From sequence record KM389306.1: a stretch of 28,538 nt of DNA. One strand, given 5' to 3'. The stretch is from Escherichia phage Phi06_2974 B. Of this stretch, positions 9,842-28,538 are shown one piece after another. The position numbers and the translations under genes were made by a program. The notes under the pieces are model-generated. The model ran no database searches. It was not told the origin of the DNA and saw nothing but the letters and a program-made list of their open reading frames with translations. Position 1 is the first letter of the stretch. Each line of letters starts with the position of its first letter.

Positions 9842-9854
9842 GTTCTCTCCTTAA

Positions 9855-10952: not shown

Positions 10953-10956
10953 TTTG

Positions 10957-11122: not shown

Positions 11123-11166
11123 TCAGCGGCTGGCAATGATAAATCACCCGCCTGCAGAGACAAAAC

Positions 11167-11625
11167 TCAGCGACGGGCCGCTGCTTCAAGATGGCGGACA
11201 ATCGTATCGAGGATAGGGACAACCACTTCAGGCTGCAGCTCACCGTCCCCCGTCAGCGGCAGGAACGGACGGGCAGGAAGTTCAACGGACTCATTACGCC
11301 CCGTTTTACCCCCAAACTGGTGAATCGGCCCATAAACGACATTAGTGCCAACCGCTGCCTGCCGGTCGTCATGGTCGGTTGATACCGACCCCATCAGACG
11401 CCCGGTATCCTGCAGCGTTTGCCCGTCGCGCTCCTGCGCTGCCAGCGAGGGAGTCCACCCCGGACGCCCCTCATCGAGAAAGTTAAACTGCGTTTCCGCC
11501 AGCAGGGTTCCGGCGATTTTGCGCATCGCGGGTTCCAGGTCTGTGGCAGCAAGATCCAGCGCACGGAGGCTCCGGCGCAGGGATTCATCGTTAATGGTGA
11601 CATTGACCAGGTTATCGGAAGCCAT
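11167..11625 (-). CDS. virion morphogenesis protein (Mu G-like)
   Basis: ORF track 11167..11892 trimmed to ATG 11625 (SD GAGAGGA) just after F-like stop at 11628; 152 aa. Confidence 0.6.
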   Translation of the reverse strand: MASDNLVNVTINDESLRRSLRALDLAATDLEPAMRKIAGTLLAETQFNFLDEGRPGWTPSLAAQERDGQTLQDTGRLMGSVSTDHDDRQAAVGTNVVYGPIHQFGGKTGRNESVELPARPFLPLTGDGELQPEVVVPILDTIVRHLEAAARR

Positions 11626-11627
11626 CG

Positions 11628-12449
11628 TTATCCTCTCAGTTCCTGCTGTGCCAGCGGTTGAAGCGTCCCCTGATAGCGGGCAAGGTCGGGACGGTATGCT
11701 GCCCCCGGCGCATAAGACCAGCCGACGTCGGTAGCCACCTTCGTGGTGCCGGTATTGAAGGTGGCGACGTTCTGCATCTCGCCGGTTTTCTCTGAGACCA
11801 GCTTCAGCTCCCATCCCAGAGCTGCGCCAGAACCTGACACCTTCAGGCCACGGGCACGCACATCCGCCGCGCTCAGGGCAATCACGCCACAACGGCAGCG
11901 CCAGCCGTTCGGCGGATAGAACGCCTGCCAGAACGGGTCATCATAGCGCAGCACCAGACCATGCAGCGCCAGATGGCTCTTGCGGGTATGGCTGTCGTTG
12001 ATGCCGGTATACATCCAGTACGGCCTGTCGTCGACGTTCTCCATCTGCTCAGCCCAGCGACCGGCGCTGTAGAGTACGGACATATTTGTGCGAAAGATGG
12101 TGTCGAGACGCCATGGGCTGCCCTGCTGGATGGTGACCGGCTCGCCCGTTACCGGGTCGGTGGTGTCACGTGACCCCCACCATCCCTTGCGCTGCAGCTC
12201 CGGCTCCAGCTCCTGCCGGAACCAGCGGCCTGTTTTTCCTTCATCGACAGCCTGCTGCAGTGCCCCGCGAATATCTTCCAGGATATCAAGGCGGGTCACT
12301 TTGGCGACGGTAAAGGCGCGGGCATGGGCATCCTGCCACATCTCCTCCCAGTCCCACGTGAAGCTATACCCTTTGGACTTCAGGTAACTGATAGCCCGTT
12401 TGGGGGGCAACGTCATGCAGTACGCCAGTTCAGCCGTTGTCACGCTCAT
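11628..12449 (-). CDS. head morphogenesis protein (Mu F-like)
   Basis: ORF track 11628..12476 (TTG) trimmed to ATG 12449 with GGGGG SD; follows portal gene; start uncertain (alternative ATG 12416). Confidence 0.65.
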   Translation of the reverse strand: MSVTTAELAYCMTLPPKRAISYLKSKGYSFTWDWEEMWQDAHARAFTVAKVTRLDILEDIRGALQQAVDEGKTGRWFRQELEPELQRKGWWGSRDTTDPVTGEPVTIQQGSPWRLDTIFRTNMSVLYSAGRWAEQMENVDDRPYWMYTGINDSHTRKSHLALHGLVLRYDDPFWQAFYPPNGWRCRCGVIALSAADVRARGLKVSGSGAALGWELKLVSEKTGEMQNVATFNTGTTKVATDVGWSYAPGAAYRPDLARYQGTLQPLAQQELRG

Positions 12450-13926
12450 GCAGACGCCCCCAGACAGTTGCAACAAACATAATCCGTGCCAGCCGTTCCT
12501 GCAGGTCTTCAGCGTTCATCTGCGGGTACAGCTCGGCCAGTTCGCCCAGCAGCTCAGACGGATTGACGCCATCTTCAACCCGCTTAAACAAAGGAGCCAG
12601 TACGGGTTCCAGCGTGCCATTTAACGCGCCTCCGTTCATCAGAATATCCAGCGCGTCGTCCAGGGCCTGCTGTGCCTGAATATCGGCATCAATAGCTTCG
12701 GCAAATGACAGCGGCAGCATGTTCTTCTGGCGTTCTGACGGTGGTGTCTCGTCAATATCACCGTCCTGCAGCTGGTACTCACGCTTGAAGTATTGCGGGG
12801 TGAAGACCACACCGGCGCGGCTGAGTTTCTCGTCGCGGGTTGCCTGGGTATCGTCGACCGTTCCCTGTTCCCACATCTTCCAGACGGGGCTGGCCACGTC
12901 GCCAAAGTTCATTGATACCGCCATCCTGATGGCCTGATTCACCGCGCTTTCCACGATATCAGCGTCAGCGTCACGGATATCATCAGTAACCTCCAGTCCG
13001 GCCTGCGCGGAGGCGCGGTTACTGTTGGCCTCGGTGGTCTGGTTCTGCCCCAGCAGGGCGATGGAGATTTCACTGCGGGCAAGCGTTATCAGGTTCTGAT
13101 AAATATCGCTGCTGTCGGCCTTGCCTGCGGCCTCCTTAATTTCAATGGAGGAATCGTCGGGGATAGCGGCCACCGCGTCTTCCACCATTGCCTCCATGGA
13201 ATCCAGCAGCAGGTCAATCTCACCCTGAGCGGTACCGCGCGGATGCTTGCCGATAACCCACGGTGAGCCATATTTCTCGGCAAAGCGCACCCAGAACTTC
13301 ATGCCGCCTTTTTTGAAGGTCACGGGCCAGAAGCACATCGACAGGTCAGGGAAGCCATACGGGTTATCGTAGGTCGCGTCCTGACGCGGTACCACAAACT
13401 TGTTCAGCGGTACCGGCTCGCCTTCCAGCCCGGCGTCCTTGGCGCGAAAGCGCAGCAGGTTGTCGTTGTCGAACTGGAACCACTCAGGGGGTTTACCTAC
13501 GATATCGGCAATGGCCCAGGATTTAACAGAGCGTCCCCACATGATCTCACAGGGCTGATACCCGTAGAGAACGGCGTCGGTCATCTCGCCGATGATGCGG
13601 GACAGATCCAGATCGTCGAGCATATCCCGGATGAAGCTGAATACCCGCGCCGGGGCATGACCACGTTCAAGACCGCGCTCCAGCGATTTGACCGCCGCCT
13701 TACGCCTGCGGATGCAGCCACCGACCAGCGGGTCGGTACGCAGCTCGCGATAGATGCGGATATCCCGGCCCTGAGATTTCAGAATGGGGTCAGGGTTAGG
13801 CAGGTACATCCCCAGCCCGAAGAAGTCGATGGAACGGCTGCGCGAGGCGATCTGCTCCGTCAGTGTTTTATTAGGTTCGGCAAATTTGACGAACTCACTG
13901 GGTGAAACCCAGAGTCCACGGGCCAT
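12430..13926 (-). CDS. portal protein (Mu gp29-like)
   Basis: ORF track 498 aa; ATG overlaps terminase stop (TGATG); size/position after large terminase. Confidence 0.75.
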   Translation of the reverse strand: MARGLWVSPSEFVKFAEPNKTLTEQIASRSRSIDFFGLGMYLPNPDPILKSQGRDIRIYRELRTDPLVGGCIRRRKAAVKSLERGLERGHAPARVFSFIRDMLDDLDLSRIIGEMTDAVLYGYQPCEIMWGRSVKSWAIADIVGKPPEWFQFDNDNLLRFRAKDAGLEGEPVPLNKFVVPRQDATYDNPYGFPDLSMCFWPVTFKKGGMKFWVRFAEKYGSPWVIGKHPRGTAQGEIDLLLDSMEAMVEDAVAAIPDDSSIEIKEAAGKADSSDIYQNLITLARSEISIALLGQNQTTEANSNRASAQAGLEVTDDIRDADADIVESAVNQAIRMAVSMNFGDVASPVWKMWEQGTVDDTQATRDEKLSRAGVVFTPQYFKREYQLQDGDIDETPPSERQKNMLPLSFAEAIDADIQAQQALDDALDILMNGGALNGTLEPVLAPLFKRVEDGVNPSELLGELAELYPQMNAEDLQERLARIMFVATVWGRLHERDNG

Positions 13927-15449
13927 CAGTAATCCTCCAGCATACGGGCCGCCTGACGACGACGGCGTGAGCTTGCCTTCACCGGCCCTTTGTTAATTTC
14001 ACGACTGGCGAAGTACGCCAGCGCCAGTGCGATGGCTGAATCCCCGTGACGCTTGCCACTGTCAGACTTCGCTTTTGAGCGCTGTTCCGGCACGCGGGGA
14101 ACGCCGTTTACCACCTGAACGGCCCGCAGGTCATCCAGCGTATCTTCATCCTTCGGTAAATCCACCAGGTTGCCATCTTCCAGCGCAGCCTTGACCGGCG
14201 GCATATGCTCGCGATACCAGTTTTCAGTTGGCATCACCTGCTTAACCCGGCTGGAGCCGTAGCGCTGCATGGCGTATTCGGCGAGGTAAGAGCCGTTACC
14301 ACGGGCATCAAACGCTGCACCCAGCAGACCGGGCAGGCCATCCATCAGGTACCAGGCGATTTGCTCCTGCTGTTTGAACGGCACGTTGCGCAGCTCCAGC
14401 ACGAACGGCACGCGGCGAACCAGGTTCTTCTCCTGCAGCAGGGGATAGTCCACCGACAGGTCACCGCTGCGGCCAAAGTCGCGACCCAGGAAAGAACGTG
14501 CGTCAGCGGGGAGCGCCTCCAGCAACGGTTTCAGATGTGTATCAAGCCACTCCTGCGTCTCGCTCCAGCGGACATCATCGGGCTTCAGCTCGTAACCCTC
14601 CGGGCAGGTCAGACGCAACACCGGCGTGCCAGCCGACATACGGGACTCAATCAGGGCGCGGGACAGCCAGGCTCCGCCACCGTTGGCCGGAACACAGTCA
14701 AGCTCCTCCGATGCACCGGCACCGTAGAATTTGTACACCGATGCCATCCACGCCTGCTCGGATGCTTCCGACCATTCTTTCCCGGTACGCAGGCAGACGC
14801 GGTGGAACAGCCCTTGGGACACAGCCTCCTGAAAAGTAATGCGATGTACGCTGCCCCCCTGACGCCCGGCCCGGATATCACCGATAAGCGTATTGAACGG
14901 GTTATCGTCACCGTCATGGGTGGAGATAACGCGCACTTTACCGCCCCAGATAAGCATCGCCAGCGCCGCCTTCAGCAGTTCGTCCAGTTGCTCATGGAAC
15001 GCCGCTTCGTCGATAACGATGATGCCCTGACGGCCACGCAGGTTAGACGGACGGCTGGAGAGCGCGACAACGCGGAAGCCGGAGTCAGGGAATTTGATGG
15101 TGTAGGTCTTGATATGCTTGTCGTCTTCGTCCTCTTCCCAGAAACCCTCTTCGATTTCACTGGCGGCATAGTTGAATGCCCGCGCCCACATCGCACACGC
15201 CTGGATATATTCGACGGTCATGTCCTGGTTATAGGCGATGTAATACACGTTCATCCCACCCGCAGGGGCTGAAGAGGCTGCGGTCAGCACGTCATCGGAC
15301 GCCTCAGCCCAGGTGATACCGGTTCGGCGGCTCTTCTCAATCACCTTGAGCGGAGACGTGTCAGCCACCCAGCGCTGCTGGTAGGGCATCAGAACGGCGG
15401 GGATATCCAGCGCCGAGGTGTCAGGCAAAACAGGAGCAAGCTGGCTCAT
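13926..15449 (-). CDS. terminase large subunit (Mu gp28-like)
   Basis: ORF track 507 aa; ATG at 15449; acidic segment EEDEDD, nuclease-like C-terminal half; position before portal. Confidence 0.8.
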   Translation of the reverse strand: MSQLAPVLPDTSALDIPAVLMPYQQRWVADTSPLKVIEKSRRTGITWAEASDDVLTAASSAPAGGMNVYYIAYNQDMTVEYIQACAMWARAFNYAASEIEEGFWEEDEDDKHIKTYTIKFPDSGFRVVALSSRPSNLRGRQGIIVIDEAAFHEQLDELLKAALAMLIWGGKVRVISTHDGDDNPFNTLIGDIRAGRQGGSVHRITFQEAVSQGLFHRVCLRTGKEWSEASEQAWMASVYKFYGAGASEELDCVPANGGGAWLSRALIESRMSAGTPVLRLTCPEGYELKPDDVRWSETQEWLDTHLKPLLEALPADARSFLGRDFGRSGDLSVDYPLLQEKNLVRRVPFVLELRNVPFKQQEQIAWYLMDGLPGLLGAAFDARGNGSYLAEYAMQRYGSSRVKQVMPTENWYREHMPPVKAALEDGNLVDLPKDEDTLDDLRAVQVVNGVPRVPEQRSKAKSDSGKRHGDSAIALALAYFASREINKGPVKASSRRRRQAARMLEDY

Positions 15450-15994
15450 GAGGCAATCCCCAGAATTTCACGACGCAGCGCCTGTACCGCATCGGTTGAC
15501 AGTCCACCCTTACGGGCAATTTTCTCGGCGTTGCTGGCCGCCTGCTGCGCTCTGGCCCGGACTTCAGACTGGAACTTCTTGAGGTTGACGGAAGCGCGGG
15601 ACAGCGTGGCCACGTTCTTTGCCACCTTCGACAACAGCGCCACGCGCTCTTTGGGGTCGACTTCGCCTTCTTCCGCTTCCTGCAGCTGGACGATGCTCTC
15701 GAACAGCTCGGTCTGAATCAGGGCGATCACCGCCTCCGAACGTGCATCCTGATCGTCAGCCGCACCTTCGGTCAGCATCCGGGCCGCTTCAGTGGCTGCA
15801 CGGATAGCGCCATAGCGGCGCTCAATCTTCTGGCCATAGCGATGGATAGCCGATTTGCTGATGACATAACCCTGCTCACGCAGCAGGGACTCCAGCTCGT
15901 TATACCCGCTGAAGCCGGATTCAGTCAGCGCCCGCTCAAGCCAGCGACGCACGTCTTCCGGCAGCTTTTCTATCGTGCTGCGTCTGGCCATCAT
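15446..15994 (-). CDS. Mu gp27-like protein (putative small terminase / DNA-binding packaging protein)
   Basis: ORF track 182 aa; ATG at 15994; N-terminal HTH-like segment, immediately upstream of large terminase with ATGA overlap. Confidence 0.5.
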   Translation of the reverse strand: MMARRSTIEKLPEDVRRWLERALTESGFSGYNELESLLREQGYVISKSAIHRYGQKIERRYGAIRAATEAARMLTEGAADDQDARSEAVIALIQTELFESIVQLQEAEEGEVDPKERVALLSKVAKNVATLSRASVNLKKFQSEVRARAQQAASNAEKIARKGGLSTDAVQALRREILGIAS

Positions 15995-16302
15995 TCACTC
16001 CAGTACTTTTCCGGGCGGGCGATACCGGGGCCGCATTCCACGGTATATTCCACCAGGTCAACGCCGAGGCGGGTCAGGTCGGCAAACCAGTCGCCGGAGG
16101 GTTTTTTCTCCAGATCAACCATCTTGCGGTCGGACAGATAATCCAGCTCACGGCGCAGCTCCAGCGGAGTGGTGTCCGGGTAGATGGCGCGGGACACGTC
16201 CAGCAGCAGCGTCTCGCTGGCGGTGTACGGGCGGGTTTTGTTCAGAGCAACCAGCAGACTCCAGCGCAGGGATTCCCGGCGCACGCGGGCGATATCAACC
16301 AT
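15991..16302 (-). CDS. hypothetical protein (103 aa)
   Basis: ORF track 15991..16389 (GTG) trimmed to ATG 16302 with SD AGGAGG at 6-nt spacing. Confidence 0.4.
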   Translation of the reverse strand: MVDIARVRRESLRWSLLVALNKTRPYTASETLLLDVSRAIYPDTTPLELRRELDYLSDRKMVDLEKKPSGDWFADLTRLGVDLVEYTVECGPGIARPEKYWSE

Positions 16303-16627
16303 GGTGACCTCCTGTATGACGATACTGCTGTACCACTTCCAGTTTGTTGTAGAGTGCGTCCAGCTTGGCCTCGATGACCGTCTGCCCACGGATGTAATCC
16401 TCGCGGCGGACGTAGTTCAGCGGTAAATCCGCCTTAAACCGCATAAATTCTTTTTCCAGCTCGCCCCAGTTGGAAGCGGACTGTTGCAGCGACTGCTCAA
16501 GAGAGGCGAACCGCGCCGCCTGACGCTCCTCCGCTTTACTGAACAGCCACTTGGCCATACCGCCGACAAAGCTCATGAAGGTGATGAGAAAGCCCACCAC
16601 CGTCCAGAATTCAACCTGCAACGTCAT
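16295..16627 (-). CDS. membrane protein with N-terminal TMD and coiled-coil tail (lysis-associated; possibly antiholin/releasin-like)
   Basis: ORF track 16295..16687 trimmed to ATG 16627 (ATGA overlap with i-spanin stop, SD AAGGA); hydrophobic segment FWTVVGFLITFMSFVGG. Confidence 0.4.
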   Translation of the reverse strand: MTLQVEFWTVVGFLITFMSFVGGMAKWLFSKAEERQAARFASLEQSLQQSASNWGELEKEFMRFKADLPLNYVRREDYIRGQTVIEAKLDALYNKLEVVQQYRHTGGHHG

Positions 16628-17277
16628 TTCTGTAATCCTTCCCGTTCGTCCAGCAGCCCGTTTATCTGGCTGCGCCAGATGCGGCACTGCTTCGCGTTGT
16701 CGATGATGTTGGCGAGGACATCACGCTGGGAGACGCCTGAGTTGCGTAGCCAGGCGTCAGCGGCTTCAGGTTGCCCGGACGCTGCGCCAGTGCCGGTGCC
16801 AGCGGCGGCAGTTGCGTCTGAATGACCGGTGTCGACGGATGCGTTGTCATATCCGAGCGCGGCGTTGTACTGGCGCACGAAACCGCGAGTAAACACGCAC
16901 TCAATGGGATGGCTCTTACCTTTTTCATCAATCCAGCGCTGTGTGACATCGTTAATTTGCCCCTGTAGTTGTTTGTTCTGGCTCTCCAGTTGAGCAATCT
17001 GCTCAAGGTAACTGGCTTCAGCCTGCTGCCCGGCGGCTACCTGTTCCTGATACCGTTTCGCCCAGGCCCGCAACGCAGCGTTCTCAAGCGTTGCCTGCTC
17101 CGTTTTGTACGTGTCGAATGCTGACTGCAACTCACTGACCGCCTTATCGCCGTCGCGCGTGGCGTTTTCATGCCCGCTTTTGTAGCCCAGGTAATAAAGC
17201 CCAATCAGAAAAGCATTTATGACCACCGCCAGCAGCAGACTGCGCCACGGCAGATTTTTTAGCAGGTTAGTCCACAC
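16624..17277 (-). CDS. i-spanin (Rz-like inner-membrane spanin subunit)
   Basis: ORF track 16624..17379; proposed GTG start at 17277 with SD GGGGAGG 8 nt upstream, just after endolysin stop; N-terminal TMD then long coiled-coil periplasmic domain. Confidence 0.55.
   Translation of the reverse strand: MWTNLLKNLPWRSLLLAVVINAFLIGLYYLGYKSGHENATRDGDKAVSELQSAFDTYKTEQATLENAALRAWAKRYQEQVAAGQQAEASYLEQIAQLESQNKQLQGQINDVTQRWIDEKGKSHPIECVFTRGFVRQYNAALGYDNASVDTGHSDATAAAGTGTGAASGQPEAADAWLRNSGVSQRDVLANIIDNAKQCRIWRSQINGLLDEREGLQK
16662..16928 (-). CDS. o-spanin (Rz1-like outer-membrane lipoprotein), fully embedded in i-spanin gene in +1 frame
   Basis: ORF track 16662..17006 trimmed to ATG 16928; MKKVRAIPLSACLLAVSC signal/lipobox-like N-terminus followed by proline-rich region; embedded architecture as in lambda Rz/Rz1. 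Confidence 0.45.
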   Translation of the reverse strand: MKKVRAIPLSACLLAVSCASTTPRSDMTTHPSTPVIQTQLPPLAPALAQRPGNLKPLTPGYATQASPSVMSSPTSSTTRSSAASGAAR

Positions 17278-18004
17278 AGCTGCCGCCTCCCCAGGTGAGA
17301 TAACGCGGGGCCAGTTCGTGCAGGATGCGCTGCGGATAATGACGGTTCTCCCGCCAGTTGGCAGTGCTGCGTCCGGCATTCACCGTGGCGACATGACCAA
17401 ACCAGCGGGTGCTGTCCAGCCCCTGCTGCGAGGCCAGCCGTTTGTCCCGCTGTACCCAGCCCAGACCACCGTTATAGCCTGACAGCGTCATGGCCATACG
17501 CTCGCAGTCATTGACGGCGCTGACGCGTTGCCACAGCCAGCGGTCATAGCTGACCAGCGCCCGGATGGCCCAAGACGGATTAAACGGTTCACGGCTGTTA
17601 AGCCCCGGCATCAGCTGACTTATCCAGTCAGCGGTGGTGGGCATAAACTGCGCCAGTCCCTGAGCGCCAACCGGCGAGACCGCATCAGGTCGCCAGCCGC
17701 TTTCCTGATGCAGCTGCGCGGCGAAGTCGGCCACCGGCGCAGACATTCCCCATTCAAGCCGGGCATTACGGATCACATCGTCGCGATACTGCAGCGCGGT
17801 CTGCGGTGGCTGGGCAGCGCGGGCCTGACTGAAGAAGCCGCCACACCAGAGCAGCCAGGCTACCGTTACTGAACCAAAGAGCTGCCACCAGAAACTGTGC
17901 TTACCCGTTCGGGCCTGCCCGTGGCGGGCCAGTTCGATGCCCAGCCCCAGCAGTACCAGCACGGCCCAGACAACCTGAGGCCAGTACATATAGAGGGTCA
18001 TCAT
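17267..18004 (-). CDS. endolysin, lytic transglycosylase (SLT) type with hydrophobic N-terminal signal-anchor (SAR-like) region
   Basis: ORF track 245 aa; motifs QESGW...GLAQFMP...SGYNGG consistent with SLT family; residues ~5-60 contain two hydrophobic stretches; ATG overlaps holin stop (TAATG). Confidence 0.65.
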   Translation of the reverse strand: MMTLYMYWPQVVWAVLVLLGLGIELARHGQARTGKHSFWWQLFGSVTVAWLLWCGGFFSQARAAQPPQTALQYRDDVIRNARLEWGMSAPVADFAAQLHQESGWRPDAVSPVGAQGLAQFMPTTADWISQLMPGLNSREPFNPSWAIRALVSYDRWLWQRVSAVNDCERMAMTLSGYNGGLGWVQRDKRLASQQGLDSTRWFGHVATVNAGRSTANWRENRHYPQRILHELAPRYLTWGGGSCVD

Positions 18005-18354
18005 TAAAGCCCCATCGCTACGGCCAGACAGACTGCAGCAACAATCAGCGCACGGCGGATTAGCGCAGCAGAAAAGACCAGGTGAAGGCCAGTCTGGACA
18101 GGGAAGCGACCATCAGCCATCAGCCTGTCATCATGCTTCAGGTACTGACCGGGACGGGCTTTGGGGAAAAGCGAACGGTCAAGCCAGTAGCCCAATACTG
18201 CCGCCAGCGTGATGAGTGATAGCTTGTAGACAACCACCGGCAGCTGCTGGGGCGATACCAGACCGATGGTGCCGAGCAGCAGCACAGCGGTCAGCAGCCA
18301 GCCGCTGAGACGTGGCTTTTTAACAGGGGGAATGAATTTTTTCAGGTTTTTCAT
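18004..18354 (-). CDS. putative holin (three predicted TMDs)
   Basis: ORF track 18004..18387 (GTG) trimmed to ATG 18354 with SD AAGGAG at 6 nt; 116 aa with three hydrophobic segments; first gene of lysis cassette. Confidence 0.5.
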   Translation of the reverse strand: MKNLKKFIPPVKKPRLSGWLLTAVLLLGTIGLVSPQQLPVVVYKLSLITLAAVLGYWLDRSLFPKARPGQYLKHDDRLMADGRFPVQTGLHLVFSAALIRRALIVAAVCLAVAMGL

Positions 18355-18466
18355 GAGCGTCTCCTTGTGTAGTGGAGACAGCATCACAAATGGTCGGGGA
18401 AAGGGATTTTAAACAGCGTTAATAGTGAGGATGCAGACGTGAACCGCATGATGGCTTTGAAAGAAC

Positions 18467-18498: not shown

Positions 18499-18601
18499 AT
18501 CAACCCACAGGTATGCACTGTGAGCCGACCAGGGTTCAGTCAGTCTCGCGAGACCAGACTAGCCTGCCATATTTTCATTGATTGCAAAAGGCTTACGGAT
18601 A

Positions 18602-19372
18602 ATGAAAGAACAATCTTTACCCATCGTCCCATGGATTGGCGGTAAACGTCGTCTGGCGAAGCATATTTTACCATTGTTTCCGGCCCATACCTGCTATGTG
18701 GAGCCGTTCTGCGGGGCAGCTGCGCTCTATTTCCTAAAGACTCCCAGCAAGACCGAAGTCATTAACGATATCAACGGGGAACTGGTGAACCTCTATCGGG
18801 TGGTCAAGCATCATCTGGAAGAATTTATTCGCCAGTTCAAATGGGCGCTGGTCAGCCGTCAGATTTACAAATGGTTGCAGGATACGCCGGAAGAAACGCT
18901 CACCGACATTCAGCGGGCGGCCCGGTTCTACTACCTGCAGAAACAGGCATTTGGCGGCAAGGTCGCCGATCACACATTCGGTACCTCTACAACCAGTGCG
19001 CCGCGCTTCAATTTGCTGCGTATTGAGGAAGAACTGTCGATGGCACACCTGCGCCTGTCGAGAACGCTGATAGAGCATCTGGACTGGCACCAGTGCATAG
19101 AGCGATATGATCGCCCGCATACGCTGTTCTACTGTGACCCACCGTACTGGGGAACGGAAGGCTATGGTGTGGAGTTCGGGCTGGAAAACTATGATCACAT
19201 GGCAGATTTAGCGCGAAGGATCAAAGGGAAGATGATTATATCAGTGAACGATATCCCGGAAATGCGGCAGGTATTCAACGGTCTGAACATGCAGTCGGTT
19301 GATATCAGCTACAACCTTAAGGTAACAGGCAAACCCAGCCCGAAGAAAGAGCTGGTAATTTGTAATTTTTGA
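18602..19372 (+). CDS. DNA N6-adenine methyltransferase (Dam-like, orphan)
   Basis: ORF track 18578..19372 (TTG) trimmed to ATG 18602; motifs WIGGKRR, EPFCGAAAL (AdoMet binding) and DPPY (catalytic); no adjacent restriction endonuclease gene. Confidence 0.8.
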   Translation: MKEQSLPIVPWIGGKRRLAKHILPLFPAHTCYVEPFCGAAALYFLKTPSKTEVINDINGELVNLYRVVKHHLEEFIRQFKWALVSRQIYKWLQDTPEETLTDIQRAARFYYLQKQAFGGKVADHTFGTSTTSAPRFNLLRIEEELSMAHLRLSRTLIEHLDWHQCIERYDRPHTLFYCDPPYWGTEGYGVEFGLENYDHMADLARRIKGKMIISVNDIPEMRQVFNGLNMQSVDISYNLKVTGKPSPKKELVICNF

Positions 19373-19988: not shown

Positions 19989-20399
19989 TTAACCCGTATT
20001 TTTTAATCTTTCGAACGCTGCGGACAGCTCCTTAAGCTGTTTTTCCATATCAATCATTCGCTGTTTTTCCTCAGCGCCTCGCAGCAACTCTTTTCGCACC
20101 TCTGGCTCCAGTTGGTTGAGCAGCTCCAATAACTTCAGATCAGACTGGTTGAAATGCTGCTCCTGATTAGCTGGCTGTGCTTTCTCTACCCCAACAGCTT
20201 CCCCTTTACCAGTAAGTAGCCAATCTATTGATATGTTCAAATGGGTGCTTAGCGCAACAAGAGCCTCTGCATTAGGTTCTCTCTCTCCACGCAGATAGTT
20301 TTGAAGTGAGCGATATGGAATTTTTGACAAGTCTGACAATGCCTTAATTGTCAGACCCTTAGCATCCATCGCTTCGCGCAATCTCTCTTTTATACTCAT
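19989..20399 (-). CDS. prophage repressor, XRE-family HTH with coiled-coil C-terminus
   Basis: ORF track 19989..20495 (TTG) trimmed to ATG 20399; MSIKERLREAMDAKGLTIKALSDLSKIPYRSLQNYLRG... typical Cro/CI-type HTH; divergent from early operon. Confidence 0.65.
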   Translation of the reverse strand: MSIKERLREAMDAKGLTIKALSDLSKIPYRSLQNYLRGEREPNAEALVALSTHLNISIDWLLTGKGEAVGVEKAQPANQEQHFNQSDLKLLELLNQLEPEVRKELLRGAEEKQRMIDMEKQLKELSAAFERLKNTG

Positions 20400-20487
20400 T
20401 TGAACATATCTCAATTTGACATACCCGTTTGGGTGCGTACAATAGACCCAATAGAGTACATCATAACCCAACAGGAACACGGTGCAT
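20400..20487. promoter_or_regulatory. divergent early promoter/operator region
   Basis: Plus strand: -35 TTGACA (20416..20421), 16-bp spacer, -10 TACAAT (20438..20443); direct repeats CAATAGA at 20440..20446 and 20450..20456 overlap the -10. Confidence 0.45.
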
Positions 20488-20712
20488 ATGAACAAACAAC
20501 AAGTTCGGGCACGGCTGGTTGAAAGAGGCAGTAGCTTGCGCCAGTTCGCGCTTAACGCGGGCTATGAGCCACGAACAGTCACCCAGGCTGTCAGCCGCTG
20601 GGCAGGCAAAAGCGAACTTCCACGCGGTCGTTTGACTTATCGGATTTTGCGAGACCTTTCGGTCGCAATAGGCAAAGAAGTTACCCCCGGCATCCTCAAG
20701 GAGGCGTCATGA
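20488..20712 (+). CDS. Ner/Cro-like small DNA-binding protein (first early gene)
   Basis: ORF track 20482..20712 (GTG) with ATG at 20488; 74 aa; segment LRQFALNAGYEPRTVTQAV resembles Ner-family HTH. Confidence 0.5.
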   Translation: MNKQQVRARLVERGSSLRQFALNAGYEPRTVTQAVSRWAGKSELPRGRLTYRILRDLSVAIGKEVTPGILKEAS

Positions 20713-21014
20713 GTAAACCAAATACATCAAGCTCAGGTACCCGTATTTTGCGTGTCCTTAAGGCTTTACGCGGTCACGCTCTGAACGGTGTTTCTAACGG
20801 CGAGCTGGCGTCAGCTCTGGGCGAGTCCCCGGCGAATATCAATCGGGCGCTCAATACCCTTATCGAAGAAGGACTGGCCCTGAAACTGGATAACGGGCGT
20901 TTTGCCCCAGGAGTCCAGCTCTTACAAATCGCCATGGCGCACAGTACCGAAATGGCGCGGGCGCAGGATCGTATCAATGAAATTAACCAGCGTGTTATGG
21001 CTGGTAGTCGCTAA
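20709..21014 (+). CDS. winged-helix DNA-binding protein (IclR/MarR-like N-terminal domain)
   Basis: ORF track 101 aa; ATGA overlap with previous gene, SD AAGGAGG; ILRVLKAL...NGELASALGESPANINRALNTLIEEGLA looks like a wHTH. Confidence 0.45.
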   Translation: MSKPNTSSSGTRILRVLKALRGHALNGVSNGELASALGESPANINRALNTLIEEGLALKLDNGRFAPGVQLLQIAMAHSTEMARAQDRINEINQRVMAGSR

Positions 21015-21023
21015 GGAGTTGAA

Positions 21024-21932
21024 ATGGGACGCACAAAATCACAACCAGTTGAACTAGTGGAAGATGCACCGCTGACCGATGGTCTCAGTGTCAGTCTTAA
21101 TGCTATGTCCGAACATCGCCTCGAAATCATGCAGCAGTTTGGTGATGGCCTGCCGTATGAACGTGATCGTATTGTCCATGAAACACGTTTTTATATGGCT
21201 CAGAGTGCTGAAGCCATGCTGGAGGCGGGTAAACGACTGGTAATTCTCAAAGAAAATGAACCACATGGTGACTTCATCGACATCGTTGAGTCTCAGTTGT
21301 CCCTGTCCAAACGTACCGCGCAGGTGATGATGCAAGCATCCCTCAAATATTTGTCTCCCAAGCTTGAACCAAAAGCGCAAGCGCTTGCGCTTTTGGGTAA
21401 AACAAAGCTGTTTGAGTTGATGACGGAAGATGACGAAGACCTCGTCGAATTAGCCGATGGCGGCACGATTGCTGGTATGAGCCTCGATGATATTGATCGC
21501 ATGACAAGCCGCGAACTGAAAGCGGCCCTACGCGAAGCGCGTGAAACCAACGCAGCACAACAGCGCGTGCTTGCCGACAAAAACGAAAAAATCGACTCGC
21601 TCTCCACAAAACTGGAGAAGAAATCCCGTATCCAGCCGCCCAAGCCTGACGAAGAGGTGAAGAAGCTGCGTGCGGAAGTTACAGCGTTAGCGGTTGAGGC
21701 GGAATCTGCCATCGCCGTTCGACTGTCCAGCGCCTTTGAGACCCTGTGCGCATACTGTGCTGAAAATATGATTGATACCCCCAGAGACTTTATGGCCGGT
21801 CTGGTCTGCCAGTTGGAAAGCACCGCGCGTAGCCTGCGCTCCACATTTGACCTGCCGGACGAGCCGACAGGCAACGCCGCCCCTTCATGGCTGACTGACC
21901 CGACGCCAGAGATTAACGGGCAGGAGGCATAA
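21024..21932 (+). CDS. conserved hypothetical protein (DUF3102-like as recalled), coiled-coil central region
   Basis: ORF track 302 aa; SD AAGGAG; segment EAGKRLVILKENEPHGDFIDIVESQLSLSKRTAQVMM resembles a family I recall as DUF3102 (unverified). Confidence 0.4.
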   Translation: MGRTKSQPVELVEDAPLTDGLSVSLNAMSEHRLEIMQQFGDGLPYERDRIVHETRFYMAQSAEAMLEAGKRLVILKENEPHGDFIDIVESQLSLSKRTAQVMMQASLKYLSPKLEPKAQALALLGKTKLFELMTEDDEDLVELADGGTIAGMSLDDIDRMTSRELKAALREARETNAAQQRVLADKNEKIDSLSTKLEKKSRIQPPKPDEEVKKLRAEVTALAVEAESAIAVRLSSAFETLCAYCAENMIDTPRDFMAGLVCQLESTARSLRSTFDLPDEPTGNAAPSWLTDPTPEINGQEA

Positions 21933-21935
21933 CCC

Positions 21936-23705
21936 ATGAGTGCCGCCCTGACTGAACGACTGGTTTATGTTGCCCGCGCGGCACGTGACGCGGGGCATGG
22001 TAAGCGTGGTGCGATATATGATGCCGCCTGCGCCGAACTGGGCATTTCCCGCGCCACCCTGCTGCGCAAGCTGAAGGAGGTATCAGTGACTGACAAACGT
22101 AAAAAACGCGCCGATGCCGGGCGCAGTGCCCTGAGCCGCGACGAAGCCGCGCTGATATCTGCCACGCTGCGCGAGGCCACCCGTAAGAACGGTAAGCGCC
22201 TGTATTCCATCGCGGATGCGGTGGAGACCCTGCGGTCAAACGGCTTTATCACTGCTGGCAGAACGGACGAGGCCACAGGCGAGTTTTTCCCGCTGTCCGA
22301 GGACACCATCAGCCGCGCCCTGCGGAACTATGGTCTGCACCCGGAACAGCTTGACGCACCGGCCCCGTCGTCCGAGATGGCCAGCCTGCATCCCAATCAC
22401 GTCTGGGAGATTGATGCCTCACTTTGTACGCTTTACTACCTGAGCAACGGCCATAAAGGGTTGCAGGTGATGGACAGCTCGAAGTTCTACAAGAACAAGC
22501 CTGCCAACATCGCCCGCATCGCCAGTGACCGCGTGTGGAGTTACGAGATTACCGACCATACCAGCGGCTGGATTTACGTTGAGTACGTGATGGGTGCGGA
22601 ATCTGGTGAGAACCTCTGTTCTGTGCTTATCAACGCCATGCAGGAGCGCGGCGGCGCGGACGTGCTGCACGGCGTGCCGAAAATACTCTACCTTGATCCC
22701 GGTTCGGCGAACACCGCTGGCATGACGAAAAACATGTGCCGCTCGCTGGGCATCAATCTGATAGCGCACAAGCCGCATAACGCCCGCGCCACCGGGCAGG
22801 TGGAAAAGGCCCGTGACATTATCGAACGTAAACTGGAGCCGGGTCTCAAATTCCAGCCGGTTCATAGCCTGGACGAACTGAACGCGCTGGCGGTGAAATG
22901 GCGCAGCCACTTTAACGCCACGGCGGTCCACAGCCGCCACGGTAAAACCCGCACGGATATCTGGCTGAAGATTACTGCTGACCAGCTGAAAAAAGCGCCA
23001 TCCGTTGAGGTTTGCCGCGAACTGGCGGTGGCCGCACCGGAACTCCGTAAGGTCACACCAAAACTGCGCGTCTCGTTCCGGGGCAATGAGTTTGACGTTT
23101 CGACGGTACCGGGCGTACTGGTCGGCGAAAAACTGATGATTACCCGTAACCCGTGGCGCAGCGATGTGGCGCAGGTGGTGCTGACCGGTGAGGACGGTCA
23201 CGAGACGTTCTTCCTGGTCGAAGAGGTCAGAAAGAACGAGTTCGGCTTTGCCGAAAGCGCGGCGGTATTTGGCGAAAACTACAAAGCCCTGCCGGAGACC
23301 CCGGCGCAGACGGCGGCAAAAGAAATCGAAGAGCTGGTTACGGGCACCGATAACGCCACCGATGCAGCTGCTGCACGCAAGGCGAAGGCGCTGCCGTTCG
23401 GCGGGCGACTTGACCCGTACAAACATATCGACGACACCACGCTTCCGGCCTATATGCCGAAGCGCGGTCAGGCTTCAGACGTGCGCGGGCCGCGTATTGA
23501 GCAGCGTCCGCTGACCCATGTGGAGGCGGCGAAAGCCCTGCGCGAGAAGTTTGGCGCTAACGGCCATATCTGGACGCCGGAACATTACCGCCAGTTAACG
23601 GCGCAGTACCCGGATGGCGTACCTGAAGCCGCGCTGGATGAGGTGATGGTTACCCTGACCACTCCGGCCCGCAACAGCGTTATCAGCATCGTTAACGGTA
23701 ACTGA
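21936..23705 (+). CDS. DDE transposase (Mu-like phage transposase A)
   Basis: ORF track 589 aa; SD AGGAGG; N-terminal HTH; candidate catalytic triad D160 (WEID), D254 (YLDPGS), E290 (GQVEKA) with D-94-D-36-E spacing. Confidence 0.75.
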   Translation: MSAALTERLVYVARAARDAGHGKRGAIYDAACAELGISRATLLRKLKEVSVTDKRKKRADAGRSALSRDEAALISATLREATRKNGKRLYSIADAVETLRSNGFITAGRTDEATGEFFPLSEDTISRALRNYGLHPEQLDAPAPSSEMASLHPNHVWEIDASLCTLYYLSNGHKGLQVMDSSKFYKNKPANIARIASDRVWSYEITDHTSGWIYVEYVMGAESGENLCSVLINAMQERGGADVLHGVPKILYLDPGSANTAGMTKNMCRSLGINLIAHKPHNARATGQVEKARDIIERKLEPGLKFQPVHSLDELNALAVKWRSHFNATAVHSRHGKTRTDIWLKITADQLKKAPSVEVCRELAVAAPELRKVTPKLRVSFRGNEFDVSTVPGVLVGEKLMITRNPWRSDVAQVVLTGEDGHETFFLVEEVRKNEFGFAESAAVFGENYKALPETPAQTAAKEIEELVTGTDNATDAAAARKAKALPFGGRLDPYKHIDDTTLPAYMPKRGQASDVRGPRIEQRPLTHVEAAKALREKFGANGHIWTPEHYRQLTAQYPDGVPEAALDEVMVTLTTPARNSVISIVNGN

Positions 23706-23715
23706 GGAGGAAGGC

Positions 23716-24882
23716 ATGCTGGTACTGAAGCAACAACTGAAAGAGGCCCGCATCCCGCAGGCGGTGGTGGCAAGAGCCGTCGCCGTTTCCGAGGCCACGC
23801 TGGCCCAGATTGTGAACCATAACGAGTGGCCACGCACCAGCCCCGAAGAGGTACGCCAGCGTCTGGCGTTGTATCTGGAAAGTAAGGGGATTGATACAGC
23901 GAAAAGTTTTGATGCTGCACAGGGCGCTGTCACGCCCCGTACAGCGGGTACTACCGATAAAACCAACCTCAGTGAGGAAGAGAACATGTTACTCAAAAAG
24001 CAGGTGTTATTTCCAGCAACCAAAAAAGCGTTTGGCCTTTTCCGTGATCCGTTCGCCGATGAAGCCATGCAGGGCGCGGACGATGTGTTCACCACGCCGG
24101 ATATCCGCTACGTGCGTGAGGCGCTGTTCCAGACCGCCCGCCATGGTGGCTTTCTGGCGGTTATCGGCGAGTCCGGTGCGGGTAAATCCACGCTGCGCCG
24201 CGACCTGATTGAACGCGTCAACCGCGAGAACGCGCCGGTGATTGTAATTGAGCCATACATCATCGCCATGGAAGACAACGACGTGAAGGGCAAAACCCTG
24301 AAGGCGGCAGCTATCGCCGAGGCCATCATCAGCACCATCGCGCCGCTGGAGAGTATCAAACGCAGCCAGGACGCCCGCTTCCGCCAGTTGCACCGCGTCC
24401 TGAAGGACAGCAGTCAGGCGGGTTTCAGCCACGTTCTGGTGATTGAGGAGGCCCACAGCCTTCCCATTCCGACGCTGAAGCACCTTAAACGCTTCTTCGA
24501 ACTGGAGTCCGGCTTCAAAAAACTGCTGTCCATCGTGCTGATTGGCCAGCCTGAACTGGCGGACAAACTGTCCGAACGCAACATGGAAGTCCGTGAGGTC
24601 GTCCAGCGCTGCGAGGTGGTTGAATTGCTGCCGCTGGACAACAGCCTCGAAGAGTTTCTGACGTTCAAACTGCAACGTGCCGGTAAGCAGCTGGCCGACA
24701 TCATGGACGCCAGCGCAGTGGAAGCCATCCGCGCCCGTCTGAGCAATCTGGGTAGTAGCCGTAAAAGCATGGTCAGCCTGCTGTATCCGCTGGCCGTCAG
24801 TAACCTGGTGATAGCCGCCATGAATCTGGCTGCTGAAATCGGGGTTCCGCAGGTCAACGCCGACGTCGTCAAAGGAGTTTAA
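23716..24882 (+). CDS. AAA+ transposition ATPase (MuB/TniB-like)
   Basis: ORF track 388 aa; SD GAGGAGG; Walker A GESGAGKST at 24166..24192, Walker B-like VLVIEEAH; immediately downstream of transposase. Confidence 0.75.
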   Translation: MLVLKQQLKEARIPQAVVARAVAVSEATLAQIVNHNEWPRTSPEEVRQRLALYLESKGIDTAKSFDAAQGAVTPRTAGTTDKTNLSEEENMLLKKQVLFPATKKAFGLFRDPFADEAMQGADDVFTTPDIRYVREALFQTARHGGFLAVIGESGAGKSTLRRDLIERVNRENAPVIVIEPYIIAMEDNDVKGKTLKAAAIAEAIISTIAPLESIKRSQDARFRQLHRVLKDSSQAGFSHVLVIEEAHSLPIPTLKHLKRFFELESGFKKLLSIVLIGQPELADKLSERNMEVREVVQRCEVVELLPLDNSLEEFLTFKLQRAGKQLADIMDASAVEAIRARLSNLGSSRKSMVSLLYPLAVSNLVIAAMNLAAEIGVPQVNADVVKGV

Positions 24883-24884
24883 TC

Positions 24885-25154
24885 ATGAAATCCATCGCCG
24901 ATATCAACCAGCAGATGAACAAGGTGCAGTCCGCCATTATGGCGCTCAACGCCATGAACACTACCGTGCAGAGCGTCATGATTGCTGGCAGTAAGCCGGT
25001 TATCCGTATCGCCCGCAACGGGCACTGTGCCCGCCTGCTGGAGCAGGGCAAAGCGAGTTATACCCATGTTGGCCATGACGGCTCAGGGCGCTTCCGTCAG
25101 GGCGTCTTTGAGTTGCATGGCTGCCGTATTACCTGGTCAGAGTCGTTACATTAA
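24885..25154 (+). CDS. hypothetical protein (89 aa)
   Basis: ORF track; ATG with SD AAAGGAG 3 nt after ATPase stop. Confidence 0.45.
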   Translation: MKSIADINQQMNKVQSAIMALNAMNTTVQSVMIAGSKPVIRIARNGHCARLLEQGKASYTHVGHDGSGRFRQGVFELHGCRITWSESLH

Positions 25155-25171
25155 CCATAAGGTGAACAGAG

Positions 25172-25783
25172 ATGAGCGAAGTAAATAAAGAAAACTACAT
25201 GAAAGACCGCAAGGGGCGTCTGGTGCCGGTTGACCAGGTGTCTGACTATGACCTTGCGATGGACTCTTTCGTTAAAGAACAGGTTGTCGCCGCGAAGGTT
25301 AAACGCGATGAACTCAGTGACTTCAAGCGTCGTGCCTTTGACGAGTGCTATGCCTGGCTTGACCTTGTGGCCGAGAAGTACGGCAGAACGCGTGGCGGTG
25401 CCAAAGGCAACGTGACCTTCAGCAGCTTCGACGGTGCTCAGCAGATCACCATCCGCGTGCAGGAAACCCTGACCTTCGGGCCAGAGCTGCAGATTGCCAA
25501 AGACCTGATAGACGAGTGCGTCACCGAGTGGTCGGAAGGCGCGAACGCCAACCTGCGGGCCATCATCAGCGATGCTTTTCAGGTGGACAAAGAGGGCCAG
25601 CTTAATACCGGACGTATTCTTTCCCTGCGCCGCGTCAAGATTCAGGACGAGCGCTGGAACCGGGCAATGGAGGCCATATCGGAATCACTGCAGGTGGCAA
25701 TGTCCAAAACCTATATTAATTTCCGGGAGAAAGATAAACACGGGAAGCTAATTAATATTCCGTTAGATATCGCTGCCATTTAA
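25172..25783 (+). CDS. Mu-like early-region conserved protein (DUF3164-like as recalled)
   Basis: ORF track 203 aa; ATG with SD AAGGTGA; family assignment from memory only. Confidence 0.45.
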   Translation: MSEVNKENYMKDRKGRLVPVDQVSDYDLAMDSFVKEQVVAAKVKRDELSDFKRRAFDECYAWLDLVAEKYGRTRGGAKGNVTFSSFDGAQQITIRVQETLTFGPELQIAKDLIDECVTEWSEGANANLRAIISDAFQVDKEGQLNTGRILSLRRVKIQDERWNRAMEAISESLQVAMSKTYINFREKDKHGKLINIPLDIAAI

Positions 25784-25861
25784 TTTTAATTCAATTTCTT
25801 TTTATTTCGGCGTCAGTGCCGTGGGCTTCTGCACGCCGAAAACAGCATTAAGGAATAAATC

Positions 25862-26050
25862 ATGTCCATCAAATGTATCAACTGCCAGAAAGGTATCACC
25901 ACCCTGAAGTTCAGCGACGCCAGCGTCATTTCCTCCGGTAAGTACCGCGTACCAGCCGTCCTCATCACGCTGGTATGCCCACACTGTAGCCAGCATTACT
26001 ACACCGAAGTCCCGGCCATGGAATTCATCCCTTGTGAGGCAAAGAAATGA
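25862..26050 (+). CDS. small zinc-ribbon protein (CxxC...CxxC)
   Basis: ORF track 62 aa; ATG with SD AAGGA; Cys pairs CINC and CPHC about 35 residues apart. Confidence 0.5.
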   Translation: MSIKCINCQKGITTLKFSDASVISSGKYRVPAVLITLVCPHCSQHYYTEVPAMEFIPCEAKK

Positions 26051-26319
26051 TTACTGCAAAAGAAGCCGAAAAACGGACCCGTGAAATTGTCGCGGAATAT
26101 ATCAGTGAATGTGGTTGTGAAAATCCCAACCATATCCGGCAGGTATTAATCAAATTAATCAGCATGGCTTCACACGCCATCGTAGCAACAAATGGCCTAG
26201 ATCAGGCTATTTACGTTCTTCACGCCACCAGTGACCACCTGAGAAAAATGCCGCCGCTGTACGAGCTGGAAATTACTGAGGACGGCCACGTGAAAGTTAT
26301 CGGCGTATCACGCCATTGA
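26047..26319 (+). CDS. hypothetical protein (90 aa)
   Basis: ORF track; ATGA overlap with preceding gene; lower G+C. Confidence 0.45.
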   Translation: MITAKEAEKRTREIVAEYISECGCENPNHIRQVLIKLISMASHAIVATNGLDQAIYVLHATSDHLRKMPPLYELEITEDGHVKVIGVSRH

Positions 26320-26334
26320 TTTGGGGAAGATAAG

Positions 26335-26631
26335 ATGAAAGGCATGAAATTATATAACCGTTCGACGATCTACAATCTGGCCCTCAAAACCTTCGGCCCA
26401 GAAGCTCAGGCTCTGAAGCTGATGGAAGAAGCTGCCGAACTGGCCGCTGCTGCTGCCCGCAACATGAACGGACTGGGCAATGAAGTTGATCTGGCAGGCG
26501 AACTGGCTGACGTTGAAATCATGATTGAACAGTTCCTCCTAAACGGGATGGGCCTGATGATTGATTTTCATAAGCAGAAAAAGCTGGAACGCCTTGCCGA
26601 ACGCCTGGGGGTGACTTATGCCGCAGAATAA
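26335..26631 (+). CDS. putative MazG-like nucleotide pyrophosphohydrolase (all-alpha NTP-PPase fold)
   Basis: ORF track 98 aa; SD GGGGAAGA; paired acidic motifs LMEEAAELAAAAARN and LAGELADVEIMIEQ resemble the EExxE / ExxD metal-binding helices of small MazG-like proteins. Confidence 0.35.
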   Translation: MKGMKLYNRSTIYNLALKTFGPEAQALKLMEEAAELAAAAARNMNGLGNEVDLAGELADVEIMIEQFLLNGMGLMIDFHKQKKLERLAERLGVTYAAE

Positions 26632-27307
26632 TGAAAAGCTGCTGGAGAAGTTAAAAAAGCTACTTGCGCTGGCTAAATCCGATAACCCCCATGAAGCGGC
26701 ACTGGCACTGCAACGCGCCCAGAAACTGATGCAGGCCTATAACATCACCCAGGCTGACCTCGCACTCAGTGATATTGATGAAAGCGTCAGTAACTACTGG
26801 GCTGCAGGTAGCGTTAATCCGCCGCGTTATATGCTGGGTCTGCTGGATATTATCCAGGTGGCATTTGGCGTTAAGTCTATTATTCACTCCGGCTTTAAAC
26901 CCGGCGTTGGCTTTTACGGTAATAAAGACCGGGTTGAACTGGCCTCATATACATGGGAGGTACTGGCCAGACAGTTAATCATGGCCCGTAAAAACTATAT
27001 TCGACAGCAGAATAAAAGAATCAAAAACACGACCAAGACCAGCCGTGGTGACAAATTTGCCGAAGGGTGGGTTCTGGCCGTGCGTAGCGAGGTTCATTTA
27101 TTTGCTATGTCCCGCGAAGAACGGGAGCTGGCAAACCTCTGGCTTGAACAAAAATACCCTGATTCAGGAACAACCTCTGGCCGCAAAGCCGGTAAATCCC
27201 GTGACGCGGACATGTCCCGCCACATCGGTTACAGAGAGGGAGAAAACGTCCGTCTACATCAGCCTGTCAGCGGGCAGGAACAGCGGAAGCTGGGGAGTGG
27301 CTTATGA
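26618..27307 (+). CDS. hypothetical phage protein (N-terminal motif resembling DUF2786 family as recalled)
   Basis: ORF track 229 aa; overlaps upstream gene by 14 nt; N-terminus LLEKLKKLLALAKSDNPHEAALALQRAQKLM; basic C-terminal half. Confidence 0.4.
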   Translation: MPQNNEKLLEKLKKLLALAKSDNPHEAALALQRAQKLMQAYNITQADLALSDIDESVSNYWAAGSVNPPRYMLGLLDIIQVAFGVKSIIHSGFKPGVGFYGNKDRVELASYTWEVLARQLIMARKNYIRQQNKRIKNTTKTSRGDKFAEGWVLAVRSEVHLFAMSREERELANLWLEQKYPDSGTTSGRKAGKSRDADMSRHIGYREGENVRLHQPVSGQEQRKLGSGL

Positions 27308-27519
27308 TGGCTGAATCAATTGTATGTGCCTTGTTCTGGTATGGTCTCGTGGGGTGGTGTACTGCTGAACTGCACCGCCGTTCAGGGTTTTACTCACGTT
27401 ACAGCGGTACCGGACACTGGATCAGTTGGGCCGTTATGTTCCTGTGCTGGCCTGTCGCGCTTCCTTTATATGTCGACTATATCGGTGGCGCAGGTAAAAG
27501 GAGTGGCAATGATGACTAA
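27304..27519 (+). CDS. small membrane protein (two predicted TMDs)
   Basis: ORF track 71 aa; ATGA overlap with previous stop; hydrophobic stretches SIVCALFWYGLVGW and WISWAVMFLCWPVALPLYV. Confidence 0.45.
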   Translation: MMAESIVCALFWYGLVGWCTAELHRRSGFYSRYSGTGHWISWAVMFLCWPVALPLYVDYIGGAGKRSGNDD

Positions 27520-27937
27520 GCAGCGTCTTATTCAACTCATTCATATTGCCCGCAGCGACCTCCAGATGGATGAGGACACCTACCGCCAGATGCTACAGGG
27601 GCTGACCGGCAAAGCCTCAACCAAAGGGATGGATACCCCACAGCTAAACCGCGTGCTGGAATCAATGAAAAAGAAAGGCTTTCGCATTAAGCCTGCCGGG
27701 AAAGCCAAGTCCGGCTTACCGCTCGACAGCCATCCGCAGTCAAAGAAAATCCGTGCGCTATGGCTTGAAATGGCTGCCGCAGGCATCGTCCGTGACAGTT
27801 CAGAGCAGGCGCTGGCGCTGTGGGTTAAACGGGAAACCGGCATCAGCGCGTTACGCTGGCTCAGCAATGAGCAGGCAAGTAGCGTGATTGAGAAACTGAA
27901 GAAGTGGCAGCGCAGAGCTGCGGGAGTGAAGCAATGA
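27509..27937 (+). CDS. gemA: GemA-like regulatory protein (Mu gp16 family)
   Basis: ORF track 27320..27937 trimmed to ATG 27509 (SD AAAAGGAG); 142 aa MMTKQRLIQLIHIARSDLQMDEDTYRQML... resembles Mu GemA; directly upstream of Mor homolog as in Mu. Confidence 0.55.
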   Translation: MMTKQRLIQLIHIARSDLQMDEDTYRQMLQGLTGKASTKGMDTPQLNRVLESMKKKGFRIKPAGKAKSGLPLDSHPQSKKIRALWLEMAAAGIVRDSSEQALALWVKRETGISALRWLSNEQASSVIEKLKKWQRRAAGVKQ

Positions 27938-28323
27938 GCGACCTGAATCAGTTTCGTAGTAAAGGGCCGGAACTGTTGGTGGAACTGGCACAGCATACCT
28001 CTGAGACTGTCCGCGAGATTATTGATATCGAACCCGCAGTTGCCGACCAGATTGGTCAGGCCGTCGCGAACCGCATGATGCAGGTCTGGGGTGGGCAAAA
28101 CGTCTATTTTCCGATGGGCATGGTCTGGAAGGTCAGCCAGCGCGACCGGGAAATTTTCCTGGAGTTTGACGGGCGCAACCATCACGAACTGGCCCGCAAA
28201 TTTGGTGTTTCACTACAGTGGGTTTACAGCGTGGTGAAGCGGGTCAGAAAAGAAGAACTGGATCGGATGCAGGGCAAACTGTTTGATGGCGAACCTGATG
28301 CCGATACAGGGAAAAAGGAGTAA
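27934..28323 (+). CDS. mor: Mor/C-family transcriptional activator (middle/late gene activator)
   Basis: ORF track 27904..28323 trimmed to ATG 27934 (overlaps gemA-like stop); 129 aa with C-terminal HTH region YFPMG...ELARKFGVSLQWVYSVVKR typical of Mor/C family. Confidence 0.65.
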   Translation: MSDLNQFRSKGPELLVELAQHTSETVREIIDIEPAVADQIGQAVANRMMQVWGGQNVYFPMGMVWKVSQRDREIFLEFDGRNHHELARKFGVSLQWVYSVVKRVRKEELDRMQGKLFDGEPDADTGKKE

Positions 28324-28404: not shown

Positions 28405-28538
28405 ATCCAGTCTCTTCCCATGTTGACCCAGTACTTCCCATAATTATCTCACTTATCCCCTGTCATTTATCTCAAGTCTAATCACATGCCCTGACGCCAG
28501 AGAAGAGAGTACAGCATCATGCCCCGGTAATCACGGGT

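Follow-up and report, generated by a model that had tools for sequence, protein, structure and literature searches.

[quoted passage not shown] We propose, as a likely joint explanation of the data, that the product is a predicted single-domain (d)NTP pyrophosphohydrolase of the MazG/HisE/dUTPase type, of about 100 residues, that is expressed early and whose role most likely concerns the nucleotide pool. The analysis directly supports the existence of a real, selected gene, its membership in the family and the superfamily, the conservation of the ligands, and the operon context; we infer the oligomeric state, the catalysis, the substrate, and the biological role. The features of the gene that matter for the argument are the following:

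26323-26329, plus strand: Shine-Dalgarno-like GGGGAAG, 5 nt 5' of the ATG, by direct reading of the sequence
26335-26631, plus strand: coding sequence of the 98-aa MazG-like protein, with an ATG start and a single predicted all-alpha NTP pyrophosphohydrolase domain
26425-26439, plus strand: codons 31-35, EEAAE, the first predicted metal-binding motif (EExxE), from conservation in relatives
26500-26511, plus strand: codons 56-59, ELAD, the second predicted metal-binding motif (ExxD), from conservation in relatives
26536-26538, plus strand: codon 68, CTC (Leu), a private R68L allele where homologues mostly have a basic residue, from the comparison of homologues
26581-26592, plus strand: codons 83-86, with K83 (67/67 relatives) and R86 (66/67), family-conserved basic residues and putative phosphate binders

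The open reading frame is a real gene under purifying selection. Its comparison with the copy of Klebsiella phage KP12 reveals 15 synonymous and 2 nonsynonymous differences (dN/dS 0.03), and the ratio is 0.15-0.27 when the comparison is made with copies at 57-67% identity. A preliminary description of this DNA, made from the letters alone, had pointed to this frame, to two acidic motifs within it, and to a spacing between them typical of MazG proteins. The frame is indeed there, on the plus strand, with its ATG and ribosome-binding site, and so are EEAAELA (residues 31-37) and GELADVEIM (residues 55-63), which leave 20 residues between E35 and E56 (E32/E35-x20-E56/D59). The Mg2+ ligands of two enzymes of this type have been defined experimentally: E119/E122/E138/D141 in Mycobacterium tuberculosis MazG and E46/E49/E74/D77 in Campylobacter jejuni dUTPase (PMC10014863). 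The spacing of the ligands in the phage protein is intermediate between these two sets, in agreement with what had been described.

Translating the whole 28.5-kb window in all six frames yields the pattern EE..E-x(12-28)-E..D a single time. Could it nevertheless be a coincidence, produced by an Ala/Glu/Leu-rich helix in a hairpin devoid of enzymatic activity? The composition of the protein, its spurious matches to designed helical proteins, and the fact that two-helix hairpins are a common shape are all compatible with this idea, but three arguments make it very improbable. First, when the protein was shuffled with its composition preserved, the pattern arose in only 334 of 100,000 cases (0.33%). 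Second, E31, E35, E56, D59, K83, Q25, and Q66 are invariant in thousands of clusters, down to about 30% identity, which would be unexpected for a purely structural coiled coil. Third, MazG and HisE structures are consistently on top in three fold searches.

The assignment to a family of pyrophosphohydrolases comes from profile searches. The protein matches PHROG 2245 ("nucleoside triphosphate pyrophosphohydrolase") with E=3e-30 and 106.6 bits, its residues 4-96 aligning with positions 116-210 of the profile. The best match in Pfam, PRA-PH (PF01503), is sub-threshold, with 19.9 bits for a gathering threshold of 21.3, and so is the match to MazG (PF03819), with 13.7 bits (E=0.077) for a threshold of 22. 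At E<=0.01, Pfam MazG is matched by 22/68 relatives and PRA-PH by 6/68. Given these sub-threshold scores and these fractions of the relatives, the PHROG 2245-type family is, at the level of profiles, a distant branch that the Pfam MazG and PRA-PH models do not formally capture. The rank of PRA-PH could also be taken to indicate a phosphoribosyl-ATP pyrophosphatase of the HisE type. We regard this as extremely improbable, because more relatives match MazG than PRA-PH, the HisE model of NCBIfam (TIGR03188) gives 15.9 bits for a cutoff of 42.7, and the gene is phage-borne and part of an early operon that provides no histidine-biosynthesis context. Formal membership thus extends to PHROG 2245 and not to Pfam MazG, PRA-PH, HisE, E. 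coli-type MazG, or Atd1, and the protein is no orthologue of E. coli MazG, HisE, or Atd1. The exhaustive profile search retrieved 15,210 cluster representatives at E<=1e-3, the clusters being defined at 50% identity.

Conservation within the family includes the predicted metal ligands. All of 67 diverse relatives (29-93% identity) have G21, Q25, E31, E35, E56, A58, D59, Q66, K83, and L87, and all but one have E32 and R86 (66/67 in both cases). The superfamily arrangement of ligands, EExx(E/D) and then ExxD at a distance of 12-28 residues, is present as E31/E32/E35 and E56/D59, each of them at least 98% conserved. The family has in addition an invariant signature consisting of [WYF]-G-x3-Q, EQ at positions 65-66, and K83-x2-R86-L87. 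Searches of the PDB sequences with phmmer and with profiles were not discriminating on their own: their top matches were designed helical proteins, a dehydrogenase, Mediator Med22, and a STAS protein, and the MazG structure 5ie9 came up with only E=0.004.

[quoted passage not shown] The AlphaFold2 model, built on an alignment of 39 sequences (pLDDT 92.3), has two long helices spanning residues 9-44 and 50-90, and this modelled all-alpha fold superposes on solved members of the superfamily. Foldseek places 5ie9, 2q5z, DCTPP1, and HisN2 at the top ranks of the PDB, and its search of viral models leads to entries named 'Nucleoside triphosphate pyrophosphohydrolase', with E down to 1.9e-5 and a TM of 0.80. 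The preliminary description had called the protein MazG-like and suggested structure prediction as a check; this has recovered a MazG/HisE-like fold, and with the PHROG 2245 match and the conserved ligands, what was a guess at the level of motifs is now a well-supported superfamily assignment.

These observations lead us to propose how the protein may work. Each chain would be a long helical hairpin, and two hairpins would pair into a four-helix bundle, possibly making a tetramer. Other MazG and HisE proteins are dimers or tetramers. We infer the pairing from natural variants of the family, i.e., the tandem duplications in P0093 and P0145 and the triplication in P0089. In the bundle, E31/E32/E35 of helix 1 and E56/D59 of helix 2 would hold Mg2+ and activate a water molecule, and the alpha-beta phosphoanhydride bond of a (d)NTP would be cleaved to give a monophosphate and pyrophosphate. 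K83, R86, and residue 68, which is usually basic, are candidate phosphate contacts, and the aromatic residue 20 and Y13 are candidate contacts of the base. When domain fusions were searched as clues to function, only the tandem repeats, a weak HAD-like hydrolase N-terminus in P0133 (below cutoff), and unannotated extensions were found; an enterobacterial subgroup (P0022/P0025/P0026) has a C-terminal extension of about 70 aa. The apparent Zn-ribbon fusions of P0018, P0024, P0079, and P0081 were set aside, as they seem to result from gene calls that read through the small ORF upstream.

The phage copy differs from its homologues at one of the candidate phosphate contacts. Position 68 is R in 74 and K in 2 of 81 homologues, and L in none, which makes L68 unique among the 82 sequences. 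The codon is CGC or CGT in KP12, HH107, P0041, and P0066, and of the 23 complete E. coli genomes in which the gene is present, none has an exact match to a 61-nt query spanning it. In about 8 kb of early region compared with the prophage of E. coli HH107, five substitutions fall within genes, four of them synonymous, and R68L is the sole amino-acid difference in the whole region. Some close prophage homologues are altered in the predicted catalytic motif itself: P0001 has E35K, P0052 has E56K and D59G, and P0056 has lost EEAA. This suggests that the gene occasionally decays in resident prophages. One may thus ask whether the copy of Phi06_2974 B is also on this path, R68L weakening the binding of the substrate in a family that is otherwise still enzymatic. 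We think that this is rather unlikely: the five acidic ligands, K83, and R86 are all intact, and a single substitution is indistinguishable from neutral drift. Furthermore, position 68 is basic in 56/67 members of the broad family (R in 39/67, K in 17/67) and non-basic in the other 11/67 (M, A, C, and others), which means that a basic residue is not strictly essential. R68L may have weakened the enzyme or may simply be tolerated.

The genetic context gives information on when the putative enzyme would be made and with which partners. The relevant features of the window are:

about 1-18387, minus strand: late, lysis, and structural genes
18578-19372, plus strand: Dam-like methylase
19989-20495, minus strand: repressor-like HTH gene
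20416-20443, plus strand: candidate early promoter TTGACA-16-TACAAT, near-consensus sigma-70 (consensus scan, 11/12 matches)
about 20709 to 28323, plus strand: early operon (Pfam/PHROG scans, HH107 RefSeq annotation, and gene spacing)
26618-27307, plus strand: DUF2786/DUF7168 gene, the 3' neighbour (Pfam; syntenic in the enterobacterial relatives L006, L010, and L014)

The early operon has 13 plus-strand genes separated by -14 to +78 nt. They encode, in this order, an HTH regulator, DUF3102, an rve transposase, a B-like AAA+ ATPase, phrog_2041, DUF3164, a 62-aa Zn-ribbon, the 90-aa phrog_3691, the MazG-like protein, DUF2786/DUF7168, the 71-aa phrog_6436, GemA, and Mor. The candidate promoter is situated between the divergent repressor-like gene and the operon. 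No convincing internal terminator was found within the operon: a weak hairpin just 5' of the MazG-like gene (26302-26314) was rejected because its stem has 5 bp and its T tract is poor, and the number of terminator-like sites shows no enrichment relative to shuffles (14 vs 9.5 +/- 3.6). The ATG of the DUF2786/DUF7168 gene overlaps the last codons of the MazG-like gene by 14 nt, which suggests that the two are translationally coupled. On the other side, the slot of the phrog_3691 ORF (26047-26319) is variable: KP12 lacks this ORF, and its Zn-ribbon gene directly abuts the MazG-like gene. The RefSeq record of HH107 does not annotate the ORF.

The element that carries this operon is a transposable prophage of the BcepMu/B3 type. 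Its transposase shares 68% identity with the transposase of BcepMu (gp09) and 57% with the one of Pseudomonas phage B3, and the early genes diverge from the late genes and run to one end of the genome, as they do in these two phages. The layout of the whole element (1-28323) is also of the BcepMu/B3 type and unlike that of Mu. The packed plus-strand genes 3' of the promoter, in such a prophage, uphold the view of the preliminary description that the gene is part of the early operon of a temperate phage. E. coli HH107 and about 22 further complete E. coli genomes harbour a 99.9% identical prophage. The match between the window and the HH107 prophage breaks off abruptly past 28484 (28484-28538), some 160 nt beyond the Mor stop codon, and the flank of HH107 at that end is a truncated csgC. 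To judge from this alignment, the break shows the end of the prophage and different insertion sites, as expected of a transposable phage.

The position of the gene is conserved beyond this element. In relatives from E. coli, Serratia, Klebsiella, and Escherichia phage PhiKM, we observed the same slot, comprising B, Gam or DUF3164, small ORFs, the MazG-like family, DUF2786/7168, GemA, and Mor, and the early ORFs of B3 include no detectable member of the family. Since a non-Mu phage has a 40%-identical member (P0078) in its DnaB/Dam early region, upstream of the terminase, the family is a general phage early-region gene and not one specific to Mu-like phages. The phage with P0078 also encodes, about 5 kb upstream, a metallo-beta-lactamase-fold protein with a weak Pfam match to Apyc1 (Anti-Pycsar) (L007, 1-686) and, downstream, a HicAB toxin-antitoxin pair.

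Our leading guess is that the protein cleans or adjusts nucleotide pools, and we favour this role because the gene is expected to be co-transcribed with transposition and replication genes and because relatives are found in replication modules. The early prophage promoter would drive the whole set, and the enzyme would act on the pool during phage replication, e.g., by removing dUTP or damaged or non-canonical dNTPs.

A different hypothesis is that the protein counters the defences of the host, by destroying (p)ppGpp or an immune nucleotide early enough to block abortive infection. There is a precedent for this in Atd1, a MazG-like protein of Pectobacterium phage PcCB7V that was reported to hydrolyse ppGpp and to protect from TIR-STING toxicity (bioRxiv 10.1101/2022.06.09.495361). 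Furthermore, the gene of Phi06_2974 B belongs to the accessory portion of the early operon, with small uncharacterised genes around it, and the weak Apyc1-like gene is located about 5 kb away from a distant relative. Accessory early genes of this sort are typically where host-takeover genes are found. A number of arguments speak against this hypothesis. First, the protein that we took to be Atd1 on the basis of its annotation and position (QQG33500.1, a 'phosphoribosyl-ATP pyrophosphatase' encoded two genes from a nucleotidyltransferase) has no detectable relationship to our family beyond the motif; orthology was rejected, with an hhalign probability of 0.7%, a BLASTP E=0.15, and a different PHROG (6408 instead of 2245). 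Second, a cyanophage MazG neither bound nor hydrolysed (p)ppGpp and preferred dGTP and dCTP (PMC6850273). Third, no known anti-defence gene is found among the neighbours, and PADLOC returned no match for the protein and four of its neighbours (five proteins). Fourth, members of the family also sit in replication modules. We conclude that an anti-defence role of this protein is possible but weakly motivated and without support here, and we hold it to be improbable. We give no more credit, and perhaps a shade less, to the broader idea that the whole, very widespread branch of small phage MazG-like proteins is a counter-defence family hydrolysing stress or immune nucleotides early in infection. 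If it were true, the nucleotides concerned might be (p)ppGpp, a cyclic or base-modified signalling nucleotide, or a toxic nucleotide generated by a defence system, and the pyrophosphatase-annotated genes in BcepMu-type early operons (this family and gp06 of BcepMu) would reflect selection for counter-defence activity.

The cleaning or adjustment of nucleotide pools is the role that we retain as the most likely one, for what is in other respects an ordinary phage gene. Its superfamily assignment is already known in PHROGs, JGI, UniProt, and recent RefSeq, and our finding adds little for this reason. The near-identical E. coli prophage gene in NZ_OZ510750.1 and a Dickeya homologue are called 'nucleoside triphosphate pyrophosphohydrolase family protein' at NCBI, and at JGI the name given to close homologues is 'NTP pyrophosphatase (non-canonical NTP hydrolase)'. 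Most database records of the homologues are still 'hypothetical protein', and the NTP pyrophosphohydrolase name is a computational annotation. In the literature that we searched, no MazG-like gene is described from Mu-like phages, and none of the members of this family is characterised. Biochemistry on any one member would annotate thousands of phage genes (>15,000 clusters of proteins of about 100 residues) and would show whether they clean the pool, bias it, or counter nucleotide-based responses of the host.

How does the protein compare with known systems? The early operon of BcepMu is equivalent and encodes gp06, a 'pyrophosphatase' (PHROG 5658; L012, 2668-3105, minus strand) with a SEVAEAME...ELAD pattern. 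However, gp06 has 145 aa, belongs to another PHROG, and lies on the opposite side of DUF3164. Homology between gp06 and the family was not detected by the family HMM, hhalign, or Pfam, and gp06 may at most be an analogous, non-orthologous gene. The presumed Atd1 is similarly a small phage protein in which the EExxE...ExxD layout is present and whose PRA-PH score is sub-threshold (19.6 bits, vs 19.9 here), but it comes from a large lytic phage, where its gene is near a nucleotidyltransferase, whereas ours comes from a Mu-like early operon. E. coli MazG (3cra) and M. tuberculosis MazG are chromosomal housekeeping proteins, about 260-330 residues long, that contain tandem domains or additional regions at the N-terminus, in contrast to the single phage-encoded domain of 98 residues described here, which lacks the two tandem domains (about 260 aa) of the E. 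coli type. The single-domain (type I) MazG proteins, i.e., Sulfolobus SSO3215 (1vmg), Bacillus MazG (5ie9), B. subtilis YpjD (2gta), and the integron iMazG (2q5z/2q73), share this architecture; similarity to them is marginal, below the PF03819 cutoff, and the phage family has its own invariant signature. The closest correspondence is with the 'nucleoside triphosphate pyrophosphohydrolase (family protein)' of PHROG 2245, UniProt, and RefSeq, of which the protein of Phi06_2974 B is a direct member with no material difference.
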